A DNA stretch of 64,000 bases from positions 1,440,001 through 1,504,000 of the forward strand of contig CAWANH010000029.1 in NCBI GenBank assembly GCA_963783375.1, given 5' to 3'. The stretch is from Candidatus Eiseniibacteriota bacterium. GTDB lineage: Bacteria > Eisenbacteria > RBG-16-71-46 > JABDJR01. Below, in pieces: positions 20,075 to 36,908 of the stretch. Both the position numbers and the translations under genes were made by a program. Below the pieces are notes generated by a model that did not search any database, was not told the DNA's origin, and saw only the letters and a list, made by a program, of their open reading frames with translations. Position 1 is the first letter of the stretch, and each line of letters opens with the position of its first letter.

Positions 20075-20107
20075 CTAGGCCTCCTTCTTTTCCTTTTCTG
20101 CTTGCGC

Positions 20108-21676
20108 TTACTTCCCGTGCAGGTCGTAAGCGACGTTGAACCAGACCACATTGGCGGTGTAGTAGCGATCCAGGAGAATGTAATCGTCGTAGTTGTACAC
20201 GTTGTACTTGGCCTCGAGGTGAATGTCGTCCTTGACGGCGTATGCCCCCTCGAAGAAGAGAATCGACTTCTCGATATCCAGGTCGCCGCCCACGTTCAGG
20301 AAGGTGAGACCGCTGGAAAGACGCAGATCCTTGATCCTCTCCAGGTCCACCCGGCCGGTGACGCTGTTGTTCCAGGCCCGGAACCTCCCGGTGCGATCCT
20401 GGAACTCGTCGTTGGAATACTCGTAAGTCCCCGACAACCCGCCCCATCCGGCATAGGCGTACCGGGCGTATGCGGAGGCGACCTGTCCCGTGGCGCTGAC
20501 GTCGATATCGGGATAGTCCCGGTCACGAATACGGAATCCCGAACCGATCGAAAGACCCTTGACCGGGTTCACCTCCAGGTCGCCACGGAAATGGGCGGTC
20601 TCGATGTCCTTGAGAAGGGTCAGCTCCTCCTGGTCCTTCTTCAGCCTGCCCGCGTACCGGAACCTGGCGGTGAGGAGCTTGTTGTACCGGAAGGTCGTCG
20701 CCGCCCGCCAGCTGCTGTAGTACGTGAGGGAGACCTCGTCGTCGTTGGTCTCGTATCCGTAGCCGAGGGAGACGTCGCCGTACCGGTAGAAAACGGTGGC
20801 GTCGATGTCGTTGGTGAAGCGATCCGTCTTGAGATCGGTGGTCTGGTCGTCGATCCGCTGGGCTTCGAATCGGTACTCGAGGCGCAGGGGATCGACCGGA
20901 TCGATCAGGCCGGTGTACTGGAAATTGGCCAGGGTGTAGTCCAGGTCCCCGGTGGAGAGGTTGCTGACCCCGTAGGCCGCCCGCAAGAGGTGTGTCCACC
21001 TGTCGTAGAACATGCAGGGAGTCGCGATCCGGGCCGAGACGACCTGGCCGGTGCGGTCGGCGTCCGAGTTCCGCTGGTCGCTGAAGTCGGAGACGCGATA
21101 GTCGACGGCCAGAACCCTTCGGTTCTTCCGGGCCTCCGCCGACACACGGCCGGAGAGGAGGCCGCTGTCGTACCGGAGCCCCAGGGCGTCGGCGGTTCCG
21201 GGTGGATAGGATAGACGGTTCCCGGTCTGGGTGATGTAGCCCAGGGATCCCTCGAGTTTGATCCAGCGCTCCGGAGTGAATCGCGCGTTCAGGTTCCAGT
21301 TCCGCCGGTCGGACGTCGTGTTGCGGCCGGGGTCGAACACCTGGCGGTTTTGGGTGAGCGAAGCCGACAGCTTGAATCTGCCCGGTCGCCGGTAGAGCAA
21401 CTTCCCTTGACGACTGTCGAAGTTGATCTCCTTGAGGTCGATCATCAGGTAGTTGTCGGGATTCGGCGTTCCGGTCAGGCGGAGCTGGGTGATGGAGAAC
21501 CCGTCGTGGATGTTGTAGGTCTCCTGGACCGCGGACCGGTCCCCCACCTCATCGAGGATGACCCCGCCCAGTTTCACGGTCCCGGTCCACGCCCCCGCCC
21601 GAAGCGGAGCCGCCCCCAGGACGAAGATGAGCATGGCCATGAGTGTCGCTCGGGTCTTCATTCGCATTCGCACCAT
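20108..21676 (-). CDS. Outer-membrane beta-barrel porin, MtrB/PioB-like
   Basis: Signal peptide; alternating aromatic/hydrophobic beta-strands; terminal strand VWFNVAYDL; lies directly after a decaheme cytochrome. Confidence 0.75.
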   Translation of the reverse strand: MVRMRMKTRATLMAMLIFVLGAAPLRAGAWTGTVKLGGVILDEVGDRSAVQETYNIHDGFSITQLRLTGTPNPDNYLMIDLKEINFDSRQGKLLYRRPGRFKLSASLTQNRQVFDPGRNTTSDRRNWNLNARFTPERWIKLEGSLGYITQTGNRLSYPPGTADALGLRYDSGLLSGRVSAEARKNRRVLAVDYRVSDFSDQRNSDADRTGQVVSARIATPCMFYDRWTHLLRAAYGVSNLSTGDLDYTLANFQYTGLIDPVDPLRLEYRFEAQRIDDQTTDLKTDRFTNDIDATVFYRYGDVSLGYGYETNDDEVSLTYYSSWRAATTFRYNKLLTARFRYAGRLKKDQEELTLLKDIETAHFRGDLEVNPVKGLSIGSGFRIRDRDYPDIDVSATGQVASAYARYAYAGWGGLSGTYEYSNDEFQDRTGRFRAWNNSVTGRVDLERIKDLRLSSGLTFLNVGGDLDIEKSILFFEGAYAVKDDIHLEAKYNVYNYDDYILLDRYYTANVVWFNVAYDLHGK

Positions 21677-21680
21677 CCTA

Positions 21681-22640
21681 CTACTGGTGACAGCCTGATT
21701 TGAGACAGCCTTGGTCCCTGAGCGACTCGCTCAGGAAGTTCCGGCTGGTGTAGGAACCGTGAATGTCCACGTGGCAGTCGTTGCACGGAATGTCGGCCCA
21801 TCTGGTTCCGTGATGGGAGTTCATCTGGTGTAGCGGGACGGTGTGGCACTGCTTGCACAGCTGGAAGTTCGGAGCCTCGTAGGGCTGCTTGAGCATCCGC
21901 GGCAGGTAGGACCCGTGGGGGTCGTGACAGTTCATGCAGCCCCCCTCCTCCGTGGAGTAATCCACCGTCGCCTGGTGCTCGTAGGGGAACGGTCCCTGGA
22001 ACTCGCCGTGGCAGCTCGTGCACATCTCGCTGCCGTTCCTGGACATGTCCCGGGAGCCGGCGTCCAGGGTCTTGTGACAATCGGCGCAGTTCATGACTCC
22101 GTCATCGACCGGATGCCGGAAGGGCTTGGCGAACTGATTTCCCACCGCGGTGTGGCACCCCAGGCACAGATCGGGCTGCGCTTTCCTGAGGAGCGGAGGC
22201 TGGGTGGAAGCGTGGACGCTGTGACAGCCGCTGCAGTTCACGTCGCTCCGGGCGTGGACGTTCTTTTCCATCATGTTTTGCTGGTGGCTGTTCAGGTGGC
22301 AGGTGGAGCAGATCTTGCCTTCGACCGCCGCGCTCAGGGCGGCGGGAACCGGCATCGGATACTGCTCCGGGTCCTCCTCGTAGTGACGAGAGTCCCCGCG
22401 GTGGCAATCGGTGCAGGCTACCCGGACATCGGCTCCCTGATCGGATTCCCGGGCCACCCGATGGGGGGTCAGTGCGAGTGAATCGGCCATTCCCTCATGG
22501 CACGTCAGGCATGTTTCGGTTTCACGGGGGTAGTCCCCGGCGGAGGGATCCGGCTGCGATCCGGCGAGAAGAACGATGACAAAAGGAACAAGGAATAACA
22601 CCGGCACGTAGCGACGCAGTTCCTTGGCTTGCTCTTTCAA
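21681..22640 (-). CDS. DmsE/MtrA-family decaheme cytochrome c
   Basis: 10 CxxCH plus terminal CLKSGCH; QFAKPFRHPV, GPFPYEH, CMNCHDPHGS, CNDCHVDIHGS match the MtrA/DmsE pattern; TTG start after GGAGG. Confidence 0.88.
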   Translation of the reverse strand: MKEQAKELRRYVPVLFLVPFVIVLLAGSQPDPSAGDYPRETETCLTCHEGMADSLALTPHRVARESDQGADVRVACTDCHRGDSRHYEEDPEQYPMPVPAALSAAVEGKICSTCHLNSHQQNMMEKNVHARSDVNCSGCHSVHASTQPPLLRKAQPDLCLGCHTAVGNQFAKPFRHPVDDGVMNCADCHKTLDAGSRDMSRNGSEMCTSCHGEFQGPFPYEHQATVDYSTEEGGCMNCHDPHGSYLPRMLKQPYEAPNFQLCKQCHTVPLHQMNSHHGTRWADIPCNDCHVDIHGSYTSRNFLSESLRDQGCLKSGCHQ

Positions 22641-22687
22641 TGGGCCCCCTCCGAAGAAAGACCGCCTATGTAGCTCTTTCAGGGCGA

Positions 22688-22717
22688 AACGTACCAACAC
22701 CTTAACGGAGCCGTCAA
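22688..22717 (-). promoter_or_regulatory. Putative sigma70 promoter for the decaheme-porin-lipoprotein operon
   Basis: TTGACG-N18-TACGTT with TGn extension, in an AT-rich intergenic region. Confidence 0.45.
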
Positions 22718-22809
22718 AGTGCTTTTTCCGATTTGACTTATTCTTTTATCGTGTTCCGGAGGGAGATCTCCCCATTCAAACCTGGAATATGAGGTATCAA
22801 GAGAAAACA

Positions 22810-22826
22810 GATAATTCTTGTCATAA
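22810..22826. promoter_or_regulatory. Candidate regulator site (Fur-box-like), copy 1
   Basis: GATAATTCTTGTCATAA; near-identical to 33106-33122. Confidence 0.35.
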
Positions 22827-22862
22827 AATCTTTCCTCCGGAACCCGCCCGGGCGCGTTCCCC

Positions 22863-22898
22863 CGGGGGAAGGCCGCCCTGGAAAGCGGCCTCCCCCCG
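22863..22898 (-). terminator. GC-rich hairpin after the 42-heme cytochrome gene
   Basis: GGGGGAAGGCCGC...GCGGCCTCCCCC imperfect inverted repeat; no clear U-tract. Confidence 0.45.
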
Positions 22899-22911
22899 AG
22901 CCGTCGTACGC

Positions 22912-25900
22912 CTACGGCCCCGAGGGGGAACGCACCTGCATGTTCTCCCCCAGGTGGCACTGCATGCACAGGTCCCGGGTCTTGTCGTGGGTCAGGAGCG
23001 CCTCGAAGGGACTCGAGTGCGGGTCATGACAGGACGTGCAGGTGATGGCCAACCCGGTCCGGGGGTCCTTGGTCGGACCCTGGTAGGGGTGGAAGTGGCT
23101 CTTGGTCACATCGTCATGGCACTGGAGGCAGAGCTTTTCCTGAGGCTCGTTCAGGATGCCCCGGGTCGCGCTCCCGTGAGGGTCGTGGCAGGTGTCGCAG
23201 CCGCCCACGTCCGGGTGCTTGTACTCTCCGGCGAACATGGCCCGGTCATGGCAGGTGAAGCAGGTCGAGGCCTCGTCCTCACGCCTGAGAAGCGACGCCG
23301 TCCGCCCGGCATGGGGGGAGTGGCAGTTGAGGCAGGCCAGCTTCTCGGTCACCGCGGGGTGGACCACCGGCTTCTCGGCGTCCTTGGCATGGCCGCCGTG
23401 ACAGGTGACGCAGAGCGCCGCTCCCTCCGCCTTCAGCCCGTTCTGCCCGGCGTGGCACGCCATGCAGTCCTTCTGGGCGTAGGGGGCGTGGTTGAAGGCC
23501 AGGACGAGGCCCGGCTCGGTCGAGCCGTGGGGATCGTGGCAGCTCGTGCAGTCCCCCTTCCCCGCCTCGAACCCACGGTGCCTGGCTTTGAAGGCGGAGG
23601 CGGTCTCGTCGTGGCACTGCCCGCACAGGGCCTTGGCCGGCTCGGCCAGGAGCCCCTTCACCGTCCCCACGTGGGGGTCGTGACAGGTCTGGCAATCCCC
23701 TTCCTTGGCCGGGGGATGGGCGTTGGCCAGCCGGCTCCGCTCGGCGACCGCCGGGTGGCAGTCGGCGCAGAGGCCCGGAGCCGCCTCCTTGAGGAGTCCG
23801 GGCATGACCCCCTCGTGCCCGCCGTGGCAGACCCGGCAGTTCCCATCCCGGACCGGGCTGTGGACCAGGTCGGGGTCGGCCTTCTTGATCCGCCCGCCCG
23901 GGTCGTCATGGCACCGGGCGCAGAGTCCGGGCCCCGAGTCCACGAGCAGGGTCGAGTCGGCGGCGGCATGGGGATTGTGGCAGCTCGCGCACTCCCCCGC
24001 CTCCACCGGGGCGTGAAGTCCCTTGGGGGGCGCCGGGGCCTCGATCGCCCCGTGGCAGGACCCGCAGAGCTCGACCTGGGAGTCCACCAGCTCCACCTTC
24101 CCCCCCGGGGACTGGGGCTTGTGGCAGGTGGAGCAGGACCCCGGGCCGAAGGGCTCGTGGCGGACCGCTCGCAGGAGCCCCTTTTCCCGGCTCCGATGCG
24201 GATCGTGGCAGGATAGGCAGCTTCCCCCCTCCGGGGCGAAGTTGTCGTGGAGCTTCCTGAAATCCCGGTCCCCCACGTCGTGGCAGGAGCTGCAGGGGTT
24301 CTTCAGCGCCACCAGCCCGTCGGCGCCCTTGGTCTGGTGGGGATCGTGGCAGACCTCGCAGTTCCCCTCCTTCACCGGGGGATGGACGGTCCCGCTGTCC
24401 AGGGAGTCCTTCATCGCGGTGTGGCAGGTGAAGCAGATCTCGCCCTTGGCCGCCCTCAGGAAGGGCGGTCCGTCGGCGGTCCCGTGGGGATTGTGGCAGT
24501 CGGCGCACTTTCCCTCCGCCGCCGGCTCGTGGAGGGTCGCGGGGGGAAGATCGGCGGTCACCTCGCTGTGGCAGCCCCCGCAGAGCTCGGCGGCCGGGCT
24601 CACCAGGAGTCCGCGATTGGTCCCGCCGTGCGGCCGGTGACAGTCGGTGCACTCACCCTCGGCGAAGGGCGGGTGGGGGCTCGCCACCCTGAGCTCGTCG
24701 ACCTGCCTCGCGTGGCAGGGCAGACAGACCAGGGGCTGCTTCTGGACCAGGATGGCCGGGTTGTCGCTCCCGTGAGCCTGGTGGCAGTCGGCGCACCCGT
24801 TCCCGGCGAAGGGGAAGTGCACCACCGGGAGCTTCCGCTCCCCGGCGGTGTCCTCATGGCAGGAAAGACAGGTCACGTCCTCGGCCTGGGTCAGGAGATG
24901 CGGCTGGGTGCTGACGTGCGCGGTGTGGCAGGCGCGGCAATCGTCCTGGAGCGGGGCGTGGGGCACCTTGACCGAATCGGCGGCGGCGATCACGTCCTGG
25001 TGGCAGGACGCGCAGAGGTCCGGCGAGGCCTTTCGCAGCATGGCCTTCCCGCCGCCCCCGTGGGGGGCGTGACAGGCGTCACAGGCCAGGGCCTCGAACG
25101 GGGCGTGCCGCGACACCAGGTCCTTCTGGTCGCGCGGGTCCTCATGGCAGACGAAGCAGAGATCCTCGGCGTTTCCCTTGAGCAGGAACCTACGGTCCGC
25201 GCTGTGGGGATCGTGGCAGAACAGGCAGTCGCCTTCCGCCGCGGGAGGATGGCCGCCCGGCCCCGCGGCGGTTTCCCCCACGTCGGAGTGGCAGGTCACG
25301 CAGAGATCTTCCTTCGACGCGGTGAGCTCCCCGGGCTTGTCCGGCAGGCCGGCGTGGCAGGCCTGGCAGTCCGCCTCGGCGTAGGGAGCGTGCACGTATC
25401 CCCGGTTCTGGTCCGTGCTGGTTGAACCGTGGGGATCGTGGCACGATGAACAGGACGCGCCCGCTACCTCCGGTCGAGCATGGAGTTCCGGCAGCTCCGA
25501 TACGGGACCGTGGCAGCGGGCGCAAAGCTCTTTCTCGGGCGCGACCAGAAGGTTCGCGTTGGCCGAGTTGTGGGGAAGGTGGCACTCGGAGCACTTCCCC
25601 TCCTCGAAGGGTTTGTGTTTCCGGGTGGAGGCGATGGCCGCCTTGAGCTTGGGATGGCAGGAGGCGCAGGTCTCGGCTTCGGGACCGCGGAGCAGCCCCT
25701 TCTGGTCCGAGGCATGGGGATCATGGCAGCCGTCACAGGTGACCCCTTCCACCGCCAGATGATCCGAGCCCGAATCCGGGGCCACCTTCACGTCCTGGTG
25801 GCAATCCGTGCAGAGCTGGGGGAAGTCCTTCTGAAGGATCAGCGACTGGGCGAAGCCGTGCCGCTTGTGACAGGACTCGCAGTCCTCCTGCGCCGTCGGG

Positions 25901-26076
25901 ATGTGAACGACCTTCTTCCCCTTGAACTCGTCCCGGGCCTTCTGGTGGCAGTCGTAGCAGGGGCGTCGCTGGAGCGCCTCGCTTCGGCCGGCGAATTCCG
26001 GCAGGAAGAGCCCGGCCGCCACGGCCAGGACCACGAACCCGAGGCCGACGACGGCGGTGCGAACGCGGGGAACCAT
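22912..26076 (-). CDS. Giant 42-heme c-type cytochrome (paired-CxxCH repeat type)
   Basis: 42 CxxCH counted in ~1054 aa; N-terminal hydrophobic signal or anchor; repeat HxP..CxxCHxPH..LL..LCxxCH; start at MVPRVR after GAGGAG. Confidence 0.93.
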   Translation of the reverse strand: MVPRVRTAVVGLGFVVLAVAAGLFLPEFAGRSEALQRRPCYDCHQKARDEFKGKKVVHIPTAQEDCESCHKRHGFAQSLILQKDFPQLCTDCHQDVKVAPDSGSDHLAVEGVTCDGCHDPHASDQKGLLRGPEAETCASCHPKLKAAIASTRKHKPFEEGKCSECHLPHNSANANLLVAPEKELCARCHGPVSELPELHARPEVAGASCSSCHDPHGSTSTDQNRGYVHAPYAEADCQACHAGLPDKPGELTASKEDLCVTCHSDVGETAAGPGGHPPAAEGDCLFCHDPHSADRRFLLKGNAEDLCFVCHEDPRDQKDLVSRHAPFEALACDACHAPHGGGGKAMLRKASPDLCASCHQDVIAAADSVKVPHAPLQDDCRACHTAHVSTQPHLLTQAEDVTCLSCHEDTAGERKLPVVHFPFAGNGCADCHQAHGSDNPAILVQKQPLVCLPCHARQVDELRVASPHPPFAEGECTDCHRPHGGTNRGLLVSPAAELCGGCHSEVTADLPPATLHEPAAEGKCADCHNPHGTADGPPFLRAAKGEICFTCHTAMKDSLDSGTVHPPVKEGNCEVCHDPHQTKGADGLVALKNPCSSCHDVGDRDFRKLHDNFAPEGGSCLSCHDPHRSREKGLLRAVRHEPFGPGSCSTCHKPQSPGGKVELVDSQVELCGSCHGAIEAPAPPKGLHAPVEAGECASCHNPHAAADSTLLVDSGPGLCARCHDDPGGRIKKADPDLVHSPVRDGNCRVCHGGHEGVMPGLLKEAAPGLCADCHPAVAERSRLANAHPPAKEGDCQTCHDPHVGTVKGLLAEPAKALCGQCHDETASAFKARHRGFEAGKGDCTSCHDPHGSTEPGLVLAFNHAPYAQKDCMACHAGQNGLKAEGAALCVTCHGGHAKDAEKPVVHPAVTEKLACLNCHSPHAGRTASLLRREDEASTCFTCHDRAMFAGEYKHPDVGGCDTCHDPHGSATRGILNEPQEKLCLQCHDDVTKSHFHPYQGPTKDPRTGLAITCTSCHDPHSSPFEALLTHDKTRDLCMQCHLGENMQVRSPSGP

Positions 26077-26077
26077 G

Positions 26078-26629
26078 TTACTTCTCCTCGGCGCTGGGAG
26101 GTTCGTAGCCATGAACTTCCTTGAGCTGGAACGTGAAGAACGATTTCGGCGAGAAGTGAGGCGGGAAGTTCAGGAACGCCCACGAGCTGTCGACCGCCGC
26201 CCCCTCCTTGAACACCAGCACGTGGACGGCCGGGTTCTTCATTTCCATGGAGAAGTTCACCGGCTTGCCGCCGGCGATCTTGAAGTCGGGCATGAAGCCG
26301 CTCACCCGGGCGGTGTAGGGAGTGTCCCCCAGGTACATCGTCTCGCCGAGCTTCACGGTGTGGGACTCGCTCCAGCTCGGGTACATCCGGTTTCCCACCT
26401 CGAGGCCGAAGCTCAAGGTGGTGTCGGCCGCGATGGCCGCGGTGTCGGCTCCGGTTTCGGGCCCCGTGGTCCTGGGAAGCGAGCGAAGGATGGCGGCGGC
26501 GCCCGAGTCCGGCGACGCCTCCTCGGGGTGGACGGCCGCCGAATCCGCCGGCGCGTCCTGGGATCGGGCCCCGTCCGCCCAGGCCCAGACCAGGAGTCCC
26601 AACCCCACCGCGATCAAGATCCGTCTCAT
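26078..26629 (-). CDS. Exported protein, DUF2155/ResB-periplasmic-like
   Basis: Signal peptide MRRILIAVGLGLLVWAWA; GFMPDFKI..SMEMKNPAVHV..W.F..FP resembles Geobacter DUF2155 proteins as recalled. Confidence 0.6.
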   Translation of the reverse strand: MRRILIAVGLGLLVWAWADGARSQDAPADSAAVHPEEASPDSGAAAILRSLPRTTGPETGADTAAIAADTTLSFGLEVGNRMYPSWSESHTVKLGETMYLGDTPYTARVSGFMPDFKIAGGKPVNFSMEMKNPAVHVLVFKEGAAVDSSWAFLNFPPHFSPKSFFTFQLKEVHGYEPPSAEEK

Positions 26630-27282
26630 CCGATCCCTCCCTTTCCCGGCGCCACACCCACGTCCGTCCGGTCCGACTCTCCCGTGTCCTTCGGGGGCGG
26701 CGAGCTCGACGCTCCGGCGCCGCCCCGGACCGGAGGCAGGGTGGAGAGAATCCCCTCCACGGTTTCCGAAGCCAATCGCTCCAGGCTGGACACCCGCCCG
26801 ATACCGAACACGCTTTCCTTGTCCCCGCCGTCCCGGCTGTACACCGCACTCCAGAGCACCTTCCCCCCGGGCACCTCCAGGAGCCGGAGAGACACCGAAA
26901 CCTGGGGCACCTGGCTTCCGTCCGCATCCCGATAGCCGTAGGCGAGGACCGACCCCACCAGGAGCGCGTTGGCCCCCATCTCCACCCCCAGTGAATCCAC
27001 CAGGTCCGGGGGCAGGCGGTCGGTCATGATCCACGGCTGCTTGGAGAGCGCAGCCTCCATACGTCCCACATCCACCACCGCGATCCCGCGGTGCTCGGCC
27101 AGGGCCACCGCGAGCATCGGGGCAAGCCGGTCGGGAGCGTCCCGGGTCGGCGTGTAGTTGGCCAGGGGAAGGATCCCCACCCGCCAGCTTCCGCTCAAGG
27201 GCTCCGCAACGTACGCCCGAGGCCCCGGCGCGCAGCCGGCCAGGACCAGGATGATGGCCGCGAGAACCGTCTTCCGGGTCAT
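26626..27282 (-). CDS. Lipoprotein, CsgG/PelC/GNA1162-like fold
   Basis: Lipobox LAGC; VGILPLANYT, LLVGSVLAYG, VSVSLRLLEVPGGKVLWS. Confidence 0.75.
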   Translation of the reverse strand: MTRKTVLAAIILVLAGCAPGPRAYVAEPLSGSWRVGILPLANYTPTRDAPDRLAPMLAVALAEHRGIAVVDVGRMEAALSKQPWIMTDRLPPDLVDSLGVEMGANALLVGSVLAYGYRDADGSQVPQVSVSLRLLEVPGGKVLWSAVYSRDGGDKESVFGIGRVSSLERLASETVEGILSTLPPVRGGAGASSSPPPKDTGESDRTDVGVAPGKGGIG

Positions 27283-27869
27283 CAGCGCCTCGCTCGCGGA
27301 AGTGAGGACAGAAGTCCCCGGCAGACGTCGGCGGTGAGGGTTTCCATCAGCCGCACCCCTCCCCAGCCGAGGATGGGGAAACCGGCCCCGCCCTTCCGGG
27401 TCTCGCTCGCGCTCCAGACCAGGCGGCCGGTGGCCGCGTCCACCAGGCGCACCTCGATGGAAAACAGTGGATAGGAATCGCGCCCGGAGCTCACCATCTC
27501 GTACTGCCGCACCGTGCCCATGAAGATCCCCTGCACGCCCGCCTTTTCTCCCAGTTGGGCCAGTTGTTCGGTCGACCAGGGAGTCTCGGCGGGGATCCCC
27601 CCGCGGATCTGGGTCATGTCCGCGGCGAACTGTCCGGGTTCCACCACCTCGGCGAACCCCCGTTCCAGGAGCTCGGTGAAGAACACGTTGGTGACCCGGT
27701 ATCCCGCGGCCCGATCCTGGGCGAGGCTGGTGAAGGGGATGATGCCCACCCTCTCGTAGAAAGGCAGGTCGGCCTCGGGGTTCAGGAACCGGGTCGGACC
27801 CCCGCAACCGGAGACGGCGATGAGCGTCGTCGCCACCAGGAGCGCTCGGAGCCTCGAAACGTTGTTCAT
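27282..27869 (-). CDS. Lipoprotein, CsgG/PelC/GNA1162-like fold (paralog)
   Basis: Lipobox VSGC; VGIIPFTSL, IFMGTVRQYE, IEVRLVDAATGRLVWSAS. Confidence 0.78.
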   Translation of the reverse strand: MNNVSRLRALLVATTLIAVSGCGGPTRFLNPEADLPFYERVGIIPFTSLAQDRAAGYRVTNVFFTELLERGFAEVVEPGQFAADMTQIRGGIPAETPWSTEQLAQLGEKAGVQGIFMGTVRQYEMVSSGRDSYPLFSIEVRLVDAATGRLVWSASETRKGGAGFPILGWGGVRLMETLTADVCRGLLSSLPRARR

Positions 27870-27887
27870 GAAGTTCTCGCTTCCCGT

Positions 27888-29464
27888 CTAGAAATTCCGG
27901 TCCACCGAGAGACCGTAGGTGTCCAACGTGGCCCGCCCCCGGACCGCGACCTGTCGCCAGGAAAGCTGAACCCGGGTGCGACGGGCAGGCCAGAAAGTGA
28001 AGTCGGTTCCCTTGATGATCTCGGAGGAGCGCGAGGTGAGGACCAGGGCCTCCCGCCGGGACCAGTCGAGGGAGAGGGAGGTGCGCTGGCCGAGCCGCAG
28101 GTTCCCGGTCAGGCTCCCGTAGCGTTCTTCGCGGTCGATCCGGCCCCGTCCGTTCTGGCGCCGGTAGGTCGCCACCAGGTCCGCCCCCGTGGCCGGCTGG
28201 TACCCGACCTGGTACTCCCACTGGCGATCGGTCTGGGCCCTCCCGTCGATTTCGGGGAGGGTGTCCCTCCGCCAGGTGACCTCGAACCGGGTATCCCGGC
28301 TGGGAAGGGTGCGGAGCTGGATCAGGCGATGCCACTGGGTTCCGGTGGAGACCGAGCCCCCCGCGCGCGACGCCCGGAGCTCGGCGCGGGCGTTGATTCC
28401 CTTGCGGAGGAGGCCGTCCACCAGGGTGAAGACGGTGTTCTGGGGGATCGAGCCGTCTTCGGAGCGGATGTTGAAGGAGCGGAGGTAGCCGGACTGGAAG
28501 GTCATCCCCCGAACGATCTCCCGCCGGAAAATGGCCTGGAGACGAGCGTAGTCCGCTTCGATGTCTCCGTCCACGGCCTGGCGCCGTCGATACTCCCGGA
28601 GCCCTTCGAGGCTCAGCCCCTTCACCGGCTGGTAGGCCAGGCGCCCGCTCAGGTAGCGTTCGTTGATGGTCTGATCGGCGGTCAGGGCATTGTCCTGACT
28701 CCGCCCCCAGTACACCAGCGCCGAGGTACCGACGGTGAACCGCCGGGAAGGCGCCCAGCTCGAGTTCAGGTTCATTCGCTGGGTGTAGAAGGTCCGGTCC
28801 CGGTCCCGGGAACCGAAGGTGGAGTAAAGGGCGTCGTAGGTGGCCTGGGCGTTGGCCCGGCCGAGATTGACCCCGGTCCGGAGCCCCCCCGCCACTCCTC
28901 GGTCCGGGTGTCGGGGTTCAGCCCTCCCATGGGGCGGGCGTCCAGTCTCCGCCAGGAAAGGTTGCTTCCGAAAACCCCGCCGGCGGCGTAGGAAACCTCG
29001 GCCCGGCGATCGTCGGTGGTGGAGCGGCCCTGAAGGGTCTCCCGATCCTGGCGTTCGTACTTCAGCGCCATCCTCGGGGCGCCGCGCGGGCTCACGTCGA
29101 GACCGAAAAGCAGGTTCCGGTCCCGGGACGTGCTAACGCCCACCGACGTCTGCTGCCAGGGGGTGAACTGGGTGGTGAGACGCCAGGCAGGCTTTCTGAG
29201 GTCGGCGAAGAAACGGGAGCTCAGGAGGTCCGAGTTCTCTTGTCCCGGGTTCGCCCGGTAGGAGAGGGACATGCGGAGCCTGAGGTCGGCGCTTCCGGGG
29301 AGCACGGCGCGCGTGCTCAGGTCGTAGTAGTGGCGCATGACGTCCGCGTCCGCTATTCCCGAGGTGTGGTGGTACGAACCCACGTAGCGACCCTCGTAGG
29401 CCCCGGCCCCCGCCGGAACGGCCAGAGTCGCCCCGGCCAGGATGAGCGCCGCCCACCGGTGCAT
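27888..29464 (-). CDS. Outer-membrane beta-barrel protein, split by a frameshift at a G7 tract (28884-28890)
   Basis: Signal peptide MHRWAALILAGATLAVPAGAGA; beta-strand pattern in both halves; C-terminal YGLSVDRNF; adding one G joins ...EEWRGG to LRTGVNLG. Confidence 0.75.
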
Positions 29465-30642
29465 CAGGGTCCTCCCCGTCCCCACGGGCTCGGGCTTCCC
29501 GGTGCGCCGTTACCGGGCTCGCCCGGATTGTGAACGTTGTGGGAGGTGGGACCGGAGTAGTCGCGGCCGTGGCAGTCGTAGCAACTCTGGAAGCCGGTGG
29601 AGCGATGGGGGCCCCGGTCGGAGAGGGTGTTCATGACGATTCCCTCCACCGTCTGCGCCCCGGGAATCCCGTCCGAGGCGATGTGGCAGCCGAGGCAGAA
29701 CCGGCGGCACTGGGTCGCGTCGTTCACGGTGTCGGTGAGCCCGCTCCAGTCAACCCGCTCGTCGCTGATCAGGTATCCGTTCGGCTGCACCCGGTTGTGC
29801 CCCTCGGAACCGTGGGGATTGTGGCAGTCGTAGCAGGGGAGCATGTCCCCGACCTGGATGTGCGCGGGCCAGGAGAGGGCGACCCGGGATTCCTTCCGGA
29901 TCTGGTGGCCGGCGTGCTCGCCGTTCAACCCCGCGTCGTAGTAGTCCGCGATGTTCCGGTTCGCGGGGTCCATGCCTCCCGGCGCGTCCTGGTCGTGGCA
30001 GGAGAAGCAAAGCGCGTATTCCTCGGGAGATCCCACCGCGGCGTGGCCGCCGATCCCCCCGTAGGGCTTCAGCAGGAGGTCGCGACGATTCGGGGTGCCG
30101 TGAGGATCGTGGCAGTTCTCGCAACGCCCCTCTCCCGAGGCGTCTCGCCGGGGCATGTCGGGGTCCTGGGCGTGAGGCGAAAAGAAGTGACCCCCGGGCG
30201 TGATTCCCGGATCGGTGTAGGCGGTCTCCCCCGGCCAGCGGCCGCGATAGTTCACGCCGACCAGGCGCTCCCCGCCGGTGTTGGCCTCGAAGTAACCGGC
30301 GTCGGGTTCGGACTCGGGCATGCGGTCGGATTCGCCGAGGGGGTAATTGCCGGGACGGCGGCGGTGGCACGGTTCTGCCCCCTGGTCCCAGAAGGCGAGC
30401 TGGTTGGTGTTCTCGGTGAAGAGGAGGAGCGGATAGGGGGAGGGCTCCCACGCGTCGCCGTGGGGAGGATGGCACTGCTGGCACTGCCCCCGGGCCTGAT
30501 CGGCGTCACGGAGCACCCCGGTCTGCGGGTCCCCATGGGGATCGAAGGGCGTGTCCGCGGATATGTTCCAAGCAGCCAGAAGCAGGGCCGCCGTGAGAAC
30601 CATGCCGGAAACGGGTCTCACACCAAGCTCCCCCGGCCGCAA
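29464..30642 (-). CDS. Exported hexaheme c-type cytochrome with widely spaced hemes
   Basis: Signal peptide; 6 CxxCH plus a lone PCH; start uncertain (30642 or 30603). Confidence 0.85.
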   Translation of the reverse strand: MRPGELGVRPVSGMVLTAALLLAAWNISADTPFDPHGDPQTGVLRDADQARGQCQQCHPPHGDAWEPSPYPLLLFTENTNQLAFWDQGAEPCHRRRPGNYPLGESDRMPESEPDAGYFEANTGGERLVGVNYRGRWPGETAYTDPGITPGGHFFSPHAQDPDMPRRDASGEGRCENCHDPHGTPNRRDLLLKPYGGIGGHAAVGSPEEYALCFSCHDQDAPGGMDPANRNIADYYDAGLNGEHAGHQIRKESRVALSWPAHIQVGDMLPCYDCHNPHGSEGHNRVQPNGYLISDERVDWSGLTDTVNDATQCRRFCLGCHIASDGIPGAQTVEGIVMNTLSDRGPHRSTGFQSCYDCHGRDYSGPTSHNVHNPGEPGNGAPGSPSPWGRGGP

Positions 30643-30670
30643 TGTCGAAACGGGAAGGCAATGATGGACC

Positions 30671-30714
30671 GGATTCGGGCACCGGCAGTGGCCGGATTGT
30701 CGGTGCCCGAATCC
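30671..30714. terminator. Strong stem-loop directly downstream of the omcS-like gene
   Basis: GGATTCGGGCACCG / CGGTGCCCGAATCC perfect 14-bp inverted repeat. Confidence 0.65.
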
Positions 30715-30774
30715 CGTCGAAACGGGGAGGCCGGGCGCGCTAGCGCTTCGGCCGCCCTAATCCACCACCAGGCT

Positions 30775-31845
30775 TTACTGGGCCTGGGTGTGGCACTGAC
30801 CGCAGAGGGCGCGGGCCGAAGTCCCGTCGTCGCCCTGCTCGGTCACCGTGCCGGTGCCGATCATGTAGATCAGGCCGAACGCGTTCTGGTTGCCGTGGCC
30901 CTTGTGGCACGACATGCAGGACTGCGTGAGGCCGGTGTCGGTCCCGTCGTATGCGCCGGCCTTCTGGCCGGTGGGCGACATGACCTGGACCTGGTTGGTC
31001 TTCCCGGTCAGGAAGGCCAGACCGGAGTGACCGCCGCCCAGGGCGCCGATGTCGACACCCGCCGCCGGGTGACGCACGAAGTCCGCGGGAGGAGCTCCCG
31101 TGCCGCCGATCTCCGCCCCGCCGATGTCACCGTGGAAGTTGGTGTGGCAGGCCTTGCAGAAGGAGGCATAGGCGGACGCGGTCGTCACCGGCTCGTTGAA
31201 GGTGATCGCCCCGACCCCGTAGTGGTTGGCGCTGGTGCCGCTGGAGGCATTCTCGTACACCCACTTGGTGAGATCGTTGGCACCCTCGACGTCGCCGCGG
31301 GAGTAGGTCAGGAGGGTCGAGATCCCGCTCAGCGGAGGACCATAACCGCCCAGGTTCCGATAGGTATTGACGTGAGCCGAGTTGCCGCCGTGGGGCGAAT
31401 GGCAGTCGGTGCACTTCAGACCATCGGGATCGCTGAACGTGCCGCCCGGAGCCACGGCCAGCGAGTTCAGGGTGTGCCCGGTGGTCGGCGGATAGAGACC
31501 GTTGCCGCCCAACTCGTTCAGGGCACCCGCCTGACGGACATAGCCGTTGGTGTGGGTTTCGAACACGTCCGGCGCGAGCGCCTGCCCATCGTGGCAGGCC
31601 AGGCACAGGTTGTTGATATCGTCACGGAGCAGGAACTCGAACGGGCCGCCCGGTCCGAGCGGCGTGTAGAAGCCCGATCCGTTGGGGTTGTATCCATGGC
31701 TCTGGCTGTAGTGCATGACGTGGCAGTCGGAGCAGATCAAGGCCGAGCCGGTGTGATAATCACCGGCGAATCCGACGGACACGAGCACGGTCAGAGCGAG
31801 GAGAATCCCCGGACCAAGGAGGAGTTTCTTCCTCATAGCCACCAT
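30775..31845 (-). CDS. omcS: OmcS-like hexaheme cytochrome (candidate nanowire subunit)
   Basis: After the signal peptide: YH..CSDCHVMH, CLACH, GH..APGGT..LKCTDCHSPHG, YRNLGG, FCKACHTNFH, RHPA, CMSCHKGH, RALCGQCH; same order as recalled G. sulfurreducens OmcS. Confidence 0.8.
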   Translation of the reverse strand: MVAMRKKLLLGPGILLALTVLVSVGFAGDYHTGSALICSDCHVMHYSQSHGYNPNGSGFYTPLGPGGPFEFLLRDDINNLCLACHDGQALAPDVFETHTNGYVRQAGALNELGGNGLYPPTTGHTLNSLAVAPGGTFSDPDGLKCTDCHSPHGGNSAHVNTYRNLGGYGPPLSGISTLLTYSRGDVEGANDLTKWVYENASSGTSANHYGVGAITFNEPVTTASAYASFCKACHTNFHGDIGGAEIGGTGAPPADFVRHPAAGVDIGALGGGHSGLAFLTGKTNQVQVMSPTGQKAGAYDGTDTGLTQSCMSCHKGHGNQNAFGLIYMIGTGTVTEQGDDGTSARALCGQCHTQAQ

Positions 31846-32912
31846 TACCTCCCTTGCACGGTTGCGAGACCGATTCCGGAGACTCCGGAACCGCTTTGCT
31901 CCACATGATCGCGGGCCCCCGTCACGGGAGGCACGGCCACCTGGAGCACCTGGCAGCGGGCGCCCGCCCGCTCCAAGACTGCGAGCCGGTCCGCGGCCAG
32001 AAAGGCGCACGCGACCGGATAGTTGAACTGGCCGGGGCCGTGGCCGAAGCCACCGATGCGGCCCAGGTAACCGCCCCGGCGATCGAAGACGCTGATCGAG
32101 TGACGGATGGTGTCCACCACCCAGAGGTTCCCGTTGGGGCCCCAGGTCGCTCCCACGGCCATCGAGAAGGTGCCCTCACCCTCGCCGTGCTCGCCGAACG
32201 CGAAAAGCGGGGTGCCGTCGGTGGCGTTGACCAGGACCGACTTCTCACCCATGGGGTCCACCACCGCCATCATGGTCTCTTCTGCGTTCACCGCCAGAGC
32301 CACCGGCGAGGTGAACGGGCCCTTCTCCACCGGTCCGAAGCCCAGGCTTACCAGCGGCTCACCCACCGGATTCAGCACCACCAGGCCGGGGCGGTTGCCG
32401 GAACAGAGCACGTAAATGCGCCCGCTGCGTCCGATCACCACGTCCTGGAGATGGACCTTGGTGGTGAGCTCGGCGGGAAAGATGGGACGGAACGAGGTGA
32501 TGTGCGATCCCTGGGAGGTCATGACCTCGATGTAGTCGCTGAGCTGGTCGGCCACGAACATGCGGCCGTGATCGTCCAGCGCCACCGAGGCCGGCTCCGC
32601 GCTCGACCCCGCCGATCTGCGGATCTCGTAGTCCAGGGTACCCCGGGAGCGCCAGTTGGAGTCGAAGATGACCAGGCGGTGGTTCCCGGTGTCGGCGATC
32701 ACCACCACCCCCCGGGTGCTGTCGGCCACCATGCCCCGAGGGCGGCGGAAGGCGTCGAGCGGGGCGGGACCGGTGACGATGTCGAGGACGTTGAGGATGG
32801 AGGGGGCGGGATCTTCGGGGATGGGCTCCGCGGGGTAGGCCGGAACCGCGGCCACGGCCGAAGCCGAGGCGGCAAGAACCAGGCACAGTACCGCTCCGCG
32901 GAACGCAGACAT
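31845..32912 (-). CDS. NHL-repeat beta-propeller protein, exported
   Basis: FRRPRGMVAD..VIADTGNHRLVIFD; FGEHGEGEGTF; IGGFGHGPGQFNYP; signal peptide. Confidence 0.88.
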   Translation of the reverse strand: MSAFRGAVLCLVLAASASAVAAVPAYPAEPIPEDPAPSILNVLDIVTGPAPLDAFRRPRGMVADSTRGVVVIADTGNHRLVIFDSNWRSRGTLDYEIRRSAGSSAEPASVALDDHGRMFVADQLSDYIEVMTSQGSHITSFRPIFPAELTTKVHLQDVVIGRSGRIYVLCSGNRPGLVVLNPVGEPLVSLGFGPVEKGPFTSPVALAVNAEETMMAVVDPMGEKSVLVNATDGTPLFAFGEHGEGEGTFSMAVGATWGPNGNLWVVDTIRHSISVFDRRGGYLGRIGGFGHGPGQFNYPVACAFLAADRLAVLERAGARCQVLQVAVPPVTGARDHVEQSGSGVSGIGLATVQGR

Positions 32913-33105
32913 TTGGGCTCCCCCAGAAGCATCCCTGCCGGTGTCATGAACCGACGGGGGAGAACGTGATCCAGCCGATGCGACGAATCATAGCGTTACG
33001 GCGGTCTCCACAAATCCTTCATAAAAGTGATAGCCCAAATCGACCACTCTACCGGGGCATCCGACCCACCTCCCGCCCTTGCCCCGACTGCATTTCCGAT
33101 AACAT

Positions 33106-33122
33106 GATAAAGTTTGTCGTAA
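33106..33122. promoter_or_regulatory. Candidate regulator site (Fur-box-like), copy 2
   Basis: GATAAAGTTTGTCGTAA upstream of the NHL-omcS operon. Confidence 0.35.
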
Positions 33123-33321
33123 TATAGCGCGAAGGGAACGGGGCAACCGGCGCGCAACAAAGCGTTTCGATTTCCGGCCAGGAATTCAACAATCTCGGCG
33201 CGAGCCCGTCCCCGCGAAGCAGGTCCGTTGAGCACACCGTCACCGGCCGGAACTCCACCGCCGGGAACCTACCGAACCCTCCCGGGCGCGGGATCCCGCC
33301 CCCGCAGCCCCGGACTCCCCC

Positions 33322-33360
33322 AAATAAAACCGGCCCTCCGGAACGGGTCCGGAGGGCCGG
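33322..33360 (-). terminator. Rho-independent terminator after the tetraheme cytochrome gene
   Basis: CCGGCCCTCCGGA-N5-TCCGGAGGGCCGG 13-bp stem followed by TTTTATTT on the minus strand. Confidence 0.8.
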
Positions 33361-33407
33361 CGAACGAACTTTCCCCGCGGTGTCGCGGGTGGGGGGGGAA
33401 CTTTCCC

Positions 33408-34001
33408 CTACTTCCCCTCGGCCTTGGGAATCGGGTGCACGATCTTCTTCAGGTACTCGTCGTACTTGAACTCCTTGTGGAAGGGGTTCCCCTCGGCCAC
33501 GTGACACTTGAGACAGGTCTTCTCGTCGACGACGTTGAGCCCGACGGACTCGGGCTTGATCGTGCCGGCGTAGAGCTCTTTCATGACCTTCAGGCCCTTG
33601 TACCCGCTCCCGGGACCGTGACAGCTCTCACAGGAGATCCCCTCCTCGAGGGTGATCTTCTGGTTCTCCAGGTCCCCCATCACCGGGAAAGCGGTGACGT
33701 GGCACTTCAAACAGGCGTCGGCCTTCTGGGGATCGTCGATTCCCAGCTTCTTCGCGGCCGCCTTGGATTCGTCGCTGGCCAGGGCCTCGTAGGCCTTGGC
33801 GTGCGCGGTTCCCGCCCACACCTTGTGCTGGTCACCGGTCGCCGCCTTGCTGTGGCACATCTTGCAGGTCTTGACGCCTACGTAGGTGTACTCGGCCTTC
33901 TTGGCCTCGTCCTTCTTCGCATCCTGGGCCGCAGCCACCAGCCACGTTCCGGCCAACGCCAGACCCACGGAAAGGACGATCAGGGTTCTCTTGCCTCTCA
34001 T
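33408..34001 (-). CDS. Periplasmic tetraheme cytochrome, c554 family
   Basis: Signal peptide; YVGVKTCKMCH, HAKAYEAL, CLKCH, ISCESCHGPGSGY, CLKCH. Confidence 0.88.
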   Translation of the reverse strand: MRGKRTLIVLSVGLALAGTWLVAAAQDAKKDEAKKAEYTYVGVKTCKMCHSKAATGDQHKVWAGTAHAKAYEALASDESKAAAKKLGIDDPQKADACLKCHVTAFPVMGDLENQKITLEEGISCESCHGPGSGYKGLKVMKELYAGTIKPESVGLNVVDEKTCLKCHVAEGNPFHKEFKYDEYLKKIVHPIPKAEGK

Positions 34002-34088
34002 AGTTTACCTCCCTGTCCGACCGGGCACCCGGCTCGGACGCTCACCTTCACCAGAACTCGTCGCGCAACCATACAGGACGACTCCAAC

Positions 34089-35600
34089 CTAGTAAATGGA
34101 ATCGTCACCGGAATGACAGTCGTAACAGTGCATCTCCTTCCAGGCCCCATCGATATCCACCGGGTGCTTGAACTCCAACCCCTGGGTGGTCACCGTGTCC
34201 CCCAGATCCTCGGCCAGACCCTGGGCGATGATCGTGTGGCAGAGGTTGCAGTTCGAGCTGATCTGCTCTCCGTCGGCGTTCCGGAGTTCCGAGCCGTGGC
34301 ACCGGAAACAACCGGGAAACAAAAAGTGACCGCGATTATCCGGATACCTGTCCCAACGCACTTTCATGGCCGGGAACATGTTCTGGTTGTAGATACCCTG
34401 GACCGCGGGAATTGCTTCCACGGGGAGGTCGACCCCCTTGCCGGCGTAGAAGTCCTTCAACGAGGCGGCGATGGAGTCCATGGCCCCCGCCTCGGTCTCG
34501 TAGTTCCGCGACAGGACGGCCACCGCCTCCTGCTTGATCCACGGGATGCCCGGGCTCAGAACCCCCGCCGCCATGGCGGTGTTCACCGCCTGCATGGGAG
34601 AGAGGTAGTTGTGGGAGGGGCGGTTGTGGCAATCGATGCAGTCGAGCTGCCGTACCAGCCCCTTGGCGCTCCGCGTGGTCATGACCGAGTCGGGGAGCGG
34701 CTCCCCGGTCCGCGAGAACACGACCTCTTTCCCATCCTTCATCCAGGTCACCTGGTCGAAGGCCTGCCGGGAGGAATCGGTCGAGACGTAGGTCATGTGG
34801 TTTTCCTTGTCGATGTGCCAGTGGATGCCCGATGCGTGGCCCTGGCTCGACGCCGAGGTTCCCCCCACCTTGAACAGCATCTCGATCTTCCAGTGGGTGT
34901 TCTCCTTGTCCCCGAGGTAGTGGTCGTGGGTCACCTCGTTGGCCGGATAGAACTTGGCCGGCCAGTGGCACTGCTCACAGGTCTCCTGGGCGGGCCGGAG
35001 ATTCTGGACCGGGGTCTCGATGGGGGTGGGATAGGTGTGCAGGATGGTCTTGAAAACCTGCCGGGCCCCGGAGAGCTTGCTCCGGACGTACCATCCGGCC
35101 CCGGGCCCGATGTGGCAGCTGACGCACTCCACCCGGGCGTGGGCCGACCTGAGGTACGCGGTGTGCTCCGGCTGCATGACGGTGTGGCAGGTCGTCCCGC
35201 AGAACTCCACCGACTCGGTGTACTGGTACCCCTGGTAGAGCCCGATGGTGGTGACGAGGAGGAAGACGCAGGTGCCGGCCACGAAGGTGATCAGGGCGTT
35301 TCGATGATGGGGGTTCCCGAGGTCCACCACCACCGGCCGCAACTGCCCCCGCTCCCGGCGCTTCTTCTCCCGCCACATCCCAAGGGGGATGAGGAGGAGA
35401 CCCAGGACCAGCACCCCCGGGAACACCATGTAGATGAAGATCCCGATGTAGGGGTTGGTCCCCCCCGAAAAGACGTTGAGGAGGTAGAGAATGACCACCG
35501 CGGCAAGGCCGAAGAGCGCGGCGGCCGCCCCGAGCAGGGTGATGACGTTGTAGGCCAACCCCGGATAAAGTTGCTTCTTCTTTTCGTTCTTCGCGTTCAC
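34089..35600 (-). CDS. imcH: ImcH-like inner-membrane heptaheme NapC/NirT-family quinol oxidase
   Basis: 3 N-terminal TM helices; YTESVEFCGTTCHTVM.PE, HARVECVSCHIGPGA, LRPAQETCEQCHWP, GIHWH, CIDCHNRPSH; 6 CxxCH + 1 CxxxCH. Confidence 0.82.
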   Translation of the reverse strand: MNAKNEKKKQLYPGLAYNVITLLGAAAALFGLAAVVILYLLNVFSGGTNPYIGIFIYMVFPGVLVLGLLLIPLGMWREKKRRERGQLRPVVVDLGNPHHRNALITFVAGTCVFLLVTTIGLYQGYQYTESVEFCGTTCHTVMQPEHTAYLRSAHARVECVSCHIGPGAGWYVRSKLSGARQVFKTILHTYPTPIETPVQNLRPAQETCEQCHWPAKFYPANEVTHDHYLGDKENTHWKIEMLFKVGGTSASSQGHASGIHWHIDKENHMTYVSTDSSRQAFDQVTWMKDGKEVVFSRTGEPLPDSVMTTRSAKGLVRQLDCIDCHNRPSHNYLSPMQAVNTAMAAGVLSPGIPWIKQEAVAVLSRNYETEAGAMDSIAASLKDFYAGKGVDLPVEAIPAVQGIYNQNMFPAMKVRWDRYPDNRGHFLFPGCFRCHGSELRNADGEQISSNCNLCHTIIAQGLAEDLGDTVTTQGLEFKHPVDIDGAWKEMHCYDCHSGDDSIY

Positions 35601-35909
35601 GCTATCCCCGTTTTCAAGATCGTTTCGGCTCGTTGAAACAGATCGTTTCGGTTTTGCTTTCGTTCCGCGTATCCTGCCACGACCCCTTGGCGACGCGACA
35701 TCTTAATGAGCAAATCCAGAATTTGTACAGCGGACCTTCCCGGTCGGGGATGAGCGCCGATCGGGGCCTCGGACGGAGGGTCCGGTCGAGGGCTGCGACC
35801 GCCGTTCCGGGGCCACGATCCCGCCCGAAGACGATTGGACAATCTCCCCCCCGAACGGAGATCATCAAGGACTGCACGGGAACGGAAGCCCCGTCAAGGA
35901 GGAGGATCA

Positions 35910-36908
35910 ATGGAGTACGTGAAGCTCGGCGACACCGGGCTCGAGGTCTCGCGAATCTGCCTGGGATGCATGTCCTACGGGGACTCCGGCTGGCGGTCCT
36001 GGGTGCTGGACGAGGATGAGACTGCGTCTCACTTCCGGACCGCAGTGGAGGCCGGGATCAACTTCTTCGACACCGCGGACATGTACTCCCGGGGACGGAG
36101 CGAGGAGGTGACGGGGCGCTACCTGCGCGAGCTGACCCGGCGCGACGAGACGGTGGTGGCGACCAAGGTCTTCTTCCCCGTGCACCGCGGTCCCAACGGC
36201 GGGGGGCTGAGCCGGAAGCACATTCTCGACGCCTGCGACGCCTCGCTCCGGCGCCTGGGGCTGGATCACATCGATCTCTACCAGATCCACCGCTTCGATC
36301 ACGGGACACCGATCGAGGAGACGGTGGACGCGCTGGACTCCCTGGTGCGGGCGGGCAAGGTGCGGTACCTGGGGGCCAGCAGCATGGCCGCCTGGCAGTT
36401 CGCCAGGTTCCTGTTCGCCGCCGACCGGAGCGGCGCCCACCGGTTCGTCTCCATGCAGAACCACTACAACCTGGTCTACCGGGAGGAAGAACGGGAGATG
36501 ATCCCCCTCTGCCGGGATCAAGGGGTGGGGATCGTGCCCTGGAGCCCGCTGGCCCGGGGACTCCTGGCCGGGAACCGGTCCCGCGAGGGGGCGGAGCCGA
36601 CCGAGCGCGCCCGGACCGACGGCTACGCCAAGGATCTCTACGGTCCCGACGACTTCGACGTGGTGGACGCGACGGTGGAGGTGGCCAGGGCGAGGGGGGT
36701 GAAACCGGCCCAGATCGCGCTGGCCTGGCTCCTCCAGGCGCCGGGGGTGACCGCCCCCATCGTGGGGGCCACCCAGGTCCACTACATCACCGAGGCGGTG
36801 GAGGCATTGGCCATCCGGCTGGATCCCGAGGAGGTGGAGCGGCTCGAGGCCCCCTACCGGCCGCACCCGGTCCTGGGGCACCGGCCGCCGCGAGGGGTGG
36901 GGCGCTGA
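35910..36908 (+). CDS. Aldo/keto reductase (YajO-like)
   Basis: VSRICLGCMSYG, FFDTADMYS, DLYQIHRFD, YLGASSM, PWSPLARG. Confidence 0.93.
   Translation: MEYVKLGDTGLEVSRICLGCMSYGDSGWRSWVLDEDETASHFRTAVEAGINFFDTADMYSRGRSEEVTGRYLRELTRRDETVVATKVFFPVHRGPNGGGLSRKHILDACDASLRRLGLDHIDLYQIHRFDHGTPIEETVDALDSLVRAGKVRYLGASSMAAWQFARFLFAADRSGAHRFVSMQNHYNLVYREEEREMIPLCRDQGVGIVPWSPLARGLLAGNRSREGAEPTERARTDGYAKDLYGPDDFDVVDATVEVARARGVKPAQIALAWLLQAPGVTAPIVGATQVHYITEAVEALAIRLDPEEVERLEAPYRPHPVLGHRPPRGVGR

Follow-up and report, generated by a model that had tools for sequence, protein, structure and literature searches.

A compact and distant member of the OmcS cytochrome family in a predicted osc-type gene cluster of Candidatus Eiseniibacteriota

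The hexaheme cytochrome OmcS from Geobacter sulfurreducens (GSU2504; PDB 6EF8/6NEF) forms a filament of 4 nm (PMC6771412). OmcS has ~7.5 kDa per heme (PMC7096707) and 12 histidine ligands, 11 of them provided within the chain and one, at heme 5, taken from the neighboring subunit (PMC6584659, PMC7096707, PMC12203936). Among four G. sulfurreducens paralogs only OmcS is known as a wire, OmcT (GSU2503), OmcJ (GSU0701) and OscC (GSU2501) not being known as such (PMC12977616), and the omcS-companion (osc) cluster GSU2500-GSU2493 is an operon linked to the folding and secretion of OmcS (PMC13194489, PMC12977616). Homologs of OmcS occur in diverse bacteria, including Anaeromyxobacter (PMC10954620), and for CwcA (Tfer_0075) from Thermincola ferriacetica, which is 18% identical to OmcS, a homology model from 2021 proposes a polymer through heme 5 (PMC7911101). 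Structures of cytochrome nanowires have come from few organisms only (PMC13712944).

In the window analyzed here (the whole stretch of 64,000 nucleotides from contig CAWANH010000029.1 of assembly GCA_963783375.1, a Candidatus Eiseniibacteriota bacterium), an open reading frame on the minus strand runs from an ATG at 31836 to a stop at 30775 and encodes a protein of 353 amino acids, termed P0001, which is the basis of the residue numbering used below; translation could also begin in frame at an ATG at 31845, which shares bases with the stop codon of the NHL gene upstream. Six CxxCH motifs are located at residues 35, 78, 142, 227, 307 and 345, and all motifs named in the original prediction are present in the translation, in the same order. 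The leader follows a basic-hydrophobic-small pattern, recognized by eye only, and two extra residues precede the YH pair. Cleavage at A24, likewise placed by eye, would leave a mature protein of ~329 aa against 407 aa for OmcS in 6EF8, in agreement with the ~330 versus ~407 aa originally proposed. The gene comprises the following features:

30775..31836, minus strand: compact OmcS-family hexaheme cytochrome P0001, 353 aa, assigned by homology and predicted fold
31765..31836, minus strand: residues 1-24, assigned by eye as a predicted Sec-type signal peptide, without a lipobox Cys and with a model helix at 7-20
31711..31734, minus strand: heme motif 1, CSDCHVMH, in which H42 (31711-31713) aligns with OmcS His16 and is the likely inter-subunit ligand
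31696..31698, minus strand: H47, a clade-specific His five residues past H42, found in 87/107 distant homologs and 0/21 OmcS-type proteins
30895..30918, minus strand: heme motif 5, CMSCHKGH, whose heme, like its OmcS counterpart, is predicted to have no distal ligand from its own chain (PMC6584659, PMC7096707)
30790..30918, minus strand: heme 5-heme 6 segment, the one that differs most in length: 38 aa here, against an OmcS-type median of 73
P0001 residues, N-terminal half: YH 27-28, CSDCHVMH 35-42, CLACH 78-82, GH 120-121, APGGT 129-133
P0001 residues, remainder: LKCTDCHSPHG 140-150, YRNLGG 159-164, CKACHTNFH 227-235, RHPA 255-258, CMSCHKGH 307-314, RALCGQCH 342-349

When P0001 was searched as a single sequence against the PDB, no OmcS match was returned; Pfam and NCBIfam gave generic paired-CXXCH multiheme models only, TIGR03508 scored 22.5 bits against a cut-off of 192, and the nearby Atlas clusters were unnamed paired-CXXCH proteins, one of them from Ca. 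Eisenbacteria. A family profile built from P0001 and 120 homologs (121 rows) had OmcS (6EF8/6NEF) as its sole PDB match below E 0.001 (E 4.7e-6), and the alignment to OmcS suggested as a check thus yields significant similarity by the family profile, not by the single sequence. As a reference for OmcS-type proteins, 34 metagenomic loci were collected whose first motif is of the OmcS type, and 22 of them held a full six-motif gene; 21 of these were aligned, L094 being omitted as it had the same length, spacing and scores as L091, and one reference protein matches 6EF8 end to end (E 5e-193). The sequence identity of P0001 to the OmcS-type proteins is 23-29%, about 26%. Profile-profile comparison of its family with the 21 proteins gave a probability of 99.2% (E 1.2e-19), and P0001 itself scored 36.1 bits on the 21-protein profile, a value reached by none of 500 shuffles with CxxCH kept fixed (mean -5.3, max 13.5). 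In a scan of 36 multiheme ORFs of the same genome with the OmcS profile, P0001 and one paralog scored 33.8-34.8 bits and the others at most 5.3.

The AlphaFold2 monomer model of P0001, calculated with no hemes, has a mean pLDDT of 80 and a pTM of 0.79; it is weak at residues 20-37, with the lowest confidence around motif 1 (pLDDT <50 at 31-37). The only Foldseek match of the model was 6EF8 (E 7e-4, TM 0.47), and VIA-align against 48,161 chains likewise placed 6EF8 first (Z 13.3, rmsd 3.6, 255 residues spanning 27-352), followed by MtrA (Z 5.2) and OmcE (Z 3.8). An identity as an OmcE nanowire or MtrA-DmsE protein is contradicted by the six motifs, compared to four and ten, respectively, and by the weak fold matches. 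By sequence comparison and predicted fold, P0001 is a genuine but distant member of the OmcS family, and the homology first proposed from the motifs is borne out by the profile search, the profile-profile match, the shuffle control and the fold match. Since its identity to the OmcS-type proteins is low and its family lies on a long branch from all of them, orthology to the wire-forming gene, OmcS itself, stays at the level of a candidate; P0001 is equidistant from OmcS-like and second-paralog genes.

P0001 shares with OmcS all 12 His at ligand positions, the six CxxCH motifs and their register, the N-terminal aromatic-His pair, GH..APGG, RHPA/HPA, the C-terminal motif, the predicted fold and an NHL gene directly upstream. 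It differs from OmcS in being only ~26% identical, in its shorter segments and lower mass per heme and in the extra conserved His47, and its filament is a prediction only. OmcT, OscC and OmcJ belong to the same family, and a metagenomic second paralog has the same His register as P0001; they are, however, full-length and much nearer to OmcS than P0001 is, as judged with metagenomic paralogs. CwcA is comparable, by its published description, as a distant hexaheme OmcS homolog outside Geobacter but belongs to a Gram-positive cell-wall setting; its polymer is likewise a proposal.

The genes around P0001 lie on the same strand in the order NHL, P0001, P0002, barrel-like, two lipoprotein-like, small secreted protein, 42-motif cytochrome, decaheme cytochrome and second probable barrel:

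31845..32912, minus strand: NHL beta-propeller gene directly upstream of P0001, as in 70/79 related loci and 6/6 mapped OmcS-type loci
29464..30642, minus strand: P0002, a second secreted multiheme cytochrome with 6 CxxCH, a further degenerate site and partial homology to the OmcS repeat
27888..29485, minus strand: predicted outer-membrane barrel-like gene, split at ~28883 by a homopolymer assembly error
27282..27869, minus strand: lipoprotein-like gene A, with homologs flanking OmcS-type genes (E down to 1e-53)
26626..27282, minus strand: lipoprotein-like gene B, a paralog of A, with homologs flanking OmcS-type genes
26078..26629, minus strand: small secreted protein of no known family, with homologs in 38/79 related loci
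22912..26112, minus strand: periplasmic-type multiheme cytochrome with 42 CxxCH in paired-CXXCH repeats
20108..22700, minus strand: DmsE/MtrA-like decaheme cytochrome, just under the TIGR03508 cut-off, and a probable barrel

Pfam and NCBIfam assigned no family to the barrel, the lipoprotein-like genes or the small secreted protein. Among the 79 related loci, some of which are short contigs, the lipoprotein pair was found in 65 and P0002 in 57, and profiles of the neighbors applied to the 34 OmcS-type loci (metagenomic, many on short contigs) detected the NHL gene in 27, both lipoprotein-like genes strongly in five and the barrel in one. Judged from sequence, the P0001 locus is an osc-type cluster: it has the propeller, the OmcS-like gene(s), the barrel, the two paralogous lipoprotein-like genes and the large multiheme cytochrome, in the order seen in metagenomic OmcS-type loci. 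In contrast to the osc cluster, no second propeller-like gene follows the OmcS-like gene here, P0002 taking that place, and the large cytochrome has 42 motifs as compared to 26 in GSU2495 (PMC12977616). The genome has three matches to heme-attachment genes over the Pfam cut-off.

The barrel-like gene is a single ORF in 11/11 of the closest loci, and 4/4 DNA runs hold one more base in the homopolymer; a broken secretion barrel was rejected, as the split is an assembly error and the gene is intact in the reads. The probable barrel by the decaheme cytochrome was found in only 1/79 related loci, a count limited by the 10-kb flank that was in view, and the pair at 20108..22700 probably constitutes a separate module. 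Directly behind the cluster, the region 19097-22700 (minus strand) encodes the MtrA-like decaheme, an MtrB-sized barrel candidate without a family match and a hexaheme lipoprotein. Just upstream of the cluster, 33408-35600 (minus strand) holds tetraheme c554-like and NapC/NirT-type membrane multiheme genes, a possible quinol link.

The seven heme sites of P0002 follow the OmcS-type alternation; the N-terminal spare His is retained, and a conserved NVH closes the chain. Site 2 is degenerate: P0002 has only one Cys there, the family consensus has a widened Cys spacing, and one related locus (L003) has a full CxxCH. A predicted-fold search with P0002 gave no match and its profile matches were partial only, which leaves a role as a full OmcS-fold paralog unsupported, although a missing match does not equal a different fold. 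The protein could serve as a cap or adaptor.

The alignment of the 21 OmcS-type proteins contains exactly 12 invariant His, and in a joint alignment (21/21 rows) these fall on H28, 39, 42, 82, 121, 146, 149, 231, 256, 311, 314 and 349 of P0001. The counterpart of H42 is OmcS His16, reportedly the inter-subunit ligand (Wang et al. 2019). PMC6584659 and PMC7096707 specify heme 5 but give no residue number for this histidine. H42 is kept in 119/119 close rows having a residue at this position and in 103/107 distant six-motif homologs. A His at position +3 after motifs 1, 3 and 5 only was found in 111/111 close six-motif homologs, 21/21 OmcS-type proteins and 101/107 distant homologs; among the 36 multiheme ORFs of the genome, the +3 His of motif 1 is present only in P0001, its neighbor P0002 and one paralog. 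If each +3 His serves as ligand to the heme two positions earlier in the chain, the motif-1 His is left without a heme in its own chain and heme 5 without a ligand, a pairing scheme that would fit the published OmcS geometry. The original prediction had assigned the inter-subunit role to the His of the first motif; the conserved spare His agrees with this, but the candidate ligand is the later His, the one in xMH (H42, matching OmcS His16), and not the CxxCH His. Further conserved His occur in the close family, namely H47 (117/119), H205 (115/120), H235 (121/121) and H270 (117/119); in distant homologs the counts are 87/107 for H47, 100/107 for H235, 42/107 for H270 and 29/107 for H205, and in OmcS-type proteins 0/21 for H47 and 13/21 for H235.

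The motif span of P0001 is 315 aa, compared to 396-425 aa in the OmcS-type proteins. Its inter-motif distances are 43/64/85/80/38, versus OmcS-type medians of 39/94/102/93/73, the shortening residing mostly in the heme 2-3 (30 residues) and heme 5-6 (35 residues) segments, which may remodel the subunit interface. With a holo mass of ~37.5 kDa, P0001 has 6.2 kDa per heme, and a filament of it would measure ~3.6 nm versus 4 nm (~10% thinner) at equal rise per subunit. The 111 close homologs have a median motif span of 314 and the 107 distant ones a median of 322 (274-390), with 39 of the latter falling below P0001; the distant homologs were gathered with the profile of P0001 itself, which biases the sample to similar lengths. 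On the sequences at hand, the compact form is the norm of a large family and not peculiar to P0001. In an unrooted FastTree tree of 64 rows (every second representative, 8/21 OmcS-type), a long branch (1.82, support 100) sets the eight OmcS-type rows apart as one group, and P0001 lies inside a diverse compact group. Because the tree is unrooted, trimming cannot be distinguished from expansion in the Geobacter-type line. The proposal that loops had been trimmed therefore holds as to the shorter inter-heme segments and not as to the direction of change; as for a thinner wire, the size estimate is indeed smaller, but by only ~10% (~3.6 versus 4 nm at equal rise).

We consider it rather probable that P0001 polymerizes into a long OmcS-like filament, and some head-to-tail use of H42 by the protein is highly likely. 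In the proposed mechanism, P0001 would be exported by Sec and receive its hemes in the periplasm, and would then pass through the neighboring barrel, aided by the propeller and the lipoproteins. The subunits would stack head to tail, with H42 of one binding heme 5 of the next, and the 42-heme cytochrome would charge the wire. The resulting filament, ~10% thinner and less insulated than that of OmcS, would carry electrons to or from extracellular partners.

A possible, if somewhat unlikely, alternative is that P0001, instead of making a micrometer filament, stacks head to tail only into short oligomers or is built permanently into an envelope-spanning conduit, similar to OscC/GSU2501 or OmcT, and uses the spare His against a partner such as P0002. 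P0001 directly precedes the block of barrel, lipoprotein and large cytochrome genes, a position always held by GSU2501-type genes (PMC12977616), but it also lies directly behind the NHL gene, which is the place of the true OmcS-like genes. The second OmcS-type paralog of a Geobacter-type locus (L107:4058-5374) shares the His register of P0001, and OmcS-like and second-paralog genes receive similar scores from the family profile (e.g. 40.6 vs 37.7 bits in L107), so that the motif marks the family and not proven wire formation. At its second motif, the 42-heme neighbor likewise seems to carry a +3 His without a partner, meaning that a spare His need not imply polymerization. The co-conservation of P0002 (57/79 loci), which shares the motif-1 spare His, is also consistent with such a partner role. 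On the other hand, P0001 is the sole full OmcS-fold gene detected in most loci, which would make it the subunit if the cluster makes a wire.

Other ligation schemes are conceivable through the additional conserved His (H47, H235, H270). P0001 might also be a monomeric surface or periplasmic hexaheme protein in which heme 5 is completed by an extra His of the clade or is open as a substrate site. We regard this as improbable: the four extra His of the close family (H47, H205, H235, H270) and the lower protein mass per heme would suit it, but H205 and H270 drop to 29/107 and 42/107 in the distant homologs whereas H42 stays at 103/107. Moreover, the OmcS fold places motif 1 at one end and heme 5 at the other, heme order being sequence order (PMC6584659), and the near-invariance of H42 is therefore best explained by a role as a cross-subunit ligand. 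That the OmcS likeness is generic CxxCH similarity and P0001 a member of another multiheme family (MtrA/DmsE, OmcE, cytochrome c3) would agree with the OmcS-free single-sequence PDB search, the generic Pfam/NCBIfam matches and the Foldseek TM of 0.47, but is very hard to maintain and largely refuted by the shuffle control (0/500), the scores of the other multiheme ORFs of the genome (at most 5.3 vs 33.8-34.8 bits) and the fold Z of 13.3 as compared to 5.2 for MtrA and 3.8 for OmcE.

P0001 extends the known OmcS system rather than representing a new one. In the title terms of Shen et al. 2025, the OmcS assembly machinery is reportedly widespread and ancient. As distant OmcS relatives and the osc cluster have already been reported as widespread, the gain from P0001 is incremental until a filament is imaged. 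No paper on a compact OmcS clade was found in the open-licence literature. If the favored reading of a filament holds, P0001 would provide a minimal scaffold for an OmcS-type wire, and uncultured bacteria that are widespread in sediment and soil would join those with long-range electron transfer. The protein also allows a direct test of the spare His as a predictor of filament formation, a question that is still under discussion (PMC12977616). A broader joint reading, which we hold to be doubtful as a whole, is that the compact clade, rather than the Geobacter protein, represents the common and possibly ancestral OmcS wire. In many uncultured phyla (Eisenbacteria, Krumholzibacteria, Zixibacteria, Ignavibacteria, Planctomycetota, Acidobacteriota, Gemmatimonadota) it would make filaments that are thinner, have less insulation and leave more heme exposed at the side; His47 would act as a metal ligand or a second interface and P0002 as a base or cap adaptor, seven-heme paralogs would contribute a branch heme, and close relatives would be making such wires in salt-marsh sediments.

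Metatranscriptome contigs cover much of the P0001 gene in 4/4 runs (four studies, salt marsh and sediment) with relatives of 95-98% identity, one of them over 1098 bases; the runs were selected for holding this region and DNA carry-over is possible, and the contigs give a weak indication that relatives of P0001 are expressed. Most genes downstream of P0001 were not covered by the RNA-library contigs, which cannot rank genes. The tetraheme c554-like gene was likewise covered, in 3/4 runs. RNA-library contigs of two studies end at 31943 without loose ends whereas DNA contigs continue past this point, faintly hinting at a 5' end ~100 bases upstream of the P0001 gene. No sigma-70 site was found for P0001. 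The leader at 31825-31945 (minus strand) folds strongly (z -4.2) with the ribosome-binding site paired; as a conserved RNA element it was rejected, since most of 20 relatives (20 of 58 genes located in the 79 loci) do not fold well there. A riboswitch upstream of P0001, an idea taken from Geobacter, was also rejected, with no credible Rfam match in 19000-36500. The 3' side of the gene has the following feature, the stem-loops of which are possibly stabilizing or terminating:

30640..30780, minus strand: structured region directly after the P0001 stop (z -3.5 vs shuffles), with a similar tendency in relatives

Of 7152 candidates in the family search, 682 proteins reached E 0.001 or lower; at 50% identity there were 838 clusters, the weaker of which may include other multiheme proteins. 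Among species-representative genomes, a family match was present in 167 of 212 candidate stretches, and the 79 loci retained come from Eisenbacteria, Krumholzibacteria, Zixibacteria, Ignavibacteria, Planctomycetota, Acidobacteriota, Gemmatimonadota and others, the best-ranked titled related locus being from Ca. Eisenbacteria. Within the same class, 15/41 genomes (including the genome under study) had a match, and no full-length P0001 ortholog was found in the three same-genus genomes searched (93-98% complete), which suggests that the presence of P0001 is patchy but does not prove absence.

Several relatives carry additional motifs. The family members P0148 and P0201 have seven each, and the protein P0270 (1879 aa, 24 CxxCH) begins with a compact OmcS-like unit in its first 325 residues and contains five matching stretches in total, possibly representing a genetically fused wire. 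A paralog from the same genome as P0001 (G000:C28:1145407-1146594, plus strand; equal to L114:10408-11592) is 32% identical to P0001 and has seven CxxCH; the additional motif takes the place of the APGG loop immediately ahead of motif 3, possibly adding a branch heme, and the motif-1 spare His is kept. Within ~10 kb of this paralog, no homologs of the NHL, barrel or lipoprotein genes were found. The same contig encodes a cluster of very heme-rich ORFs (23, 51, 9 and 15 CxxCH) at G000:C28:1119068-1127193, without the +3 His register, and their overlapping frames suggest frameshifts.
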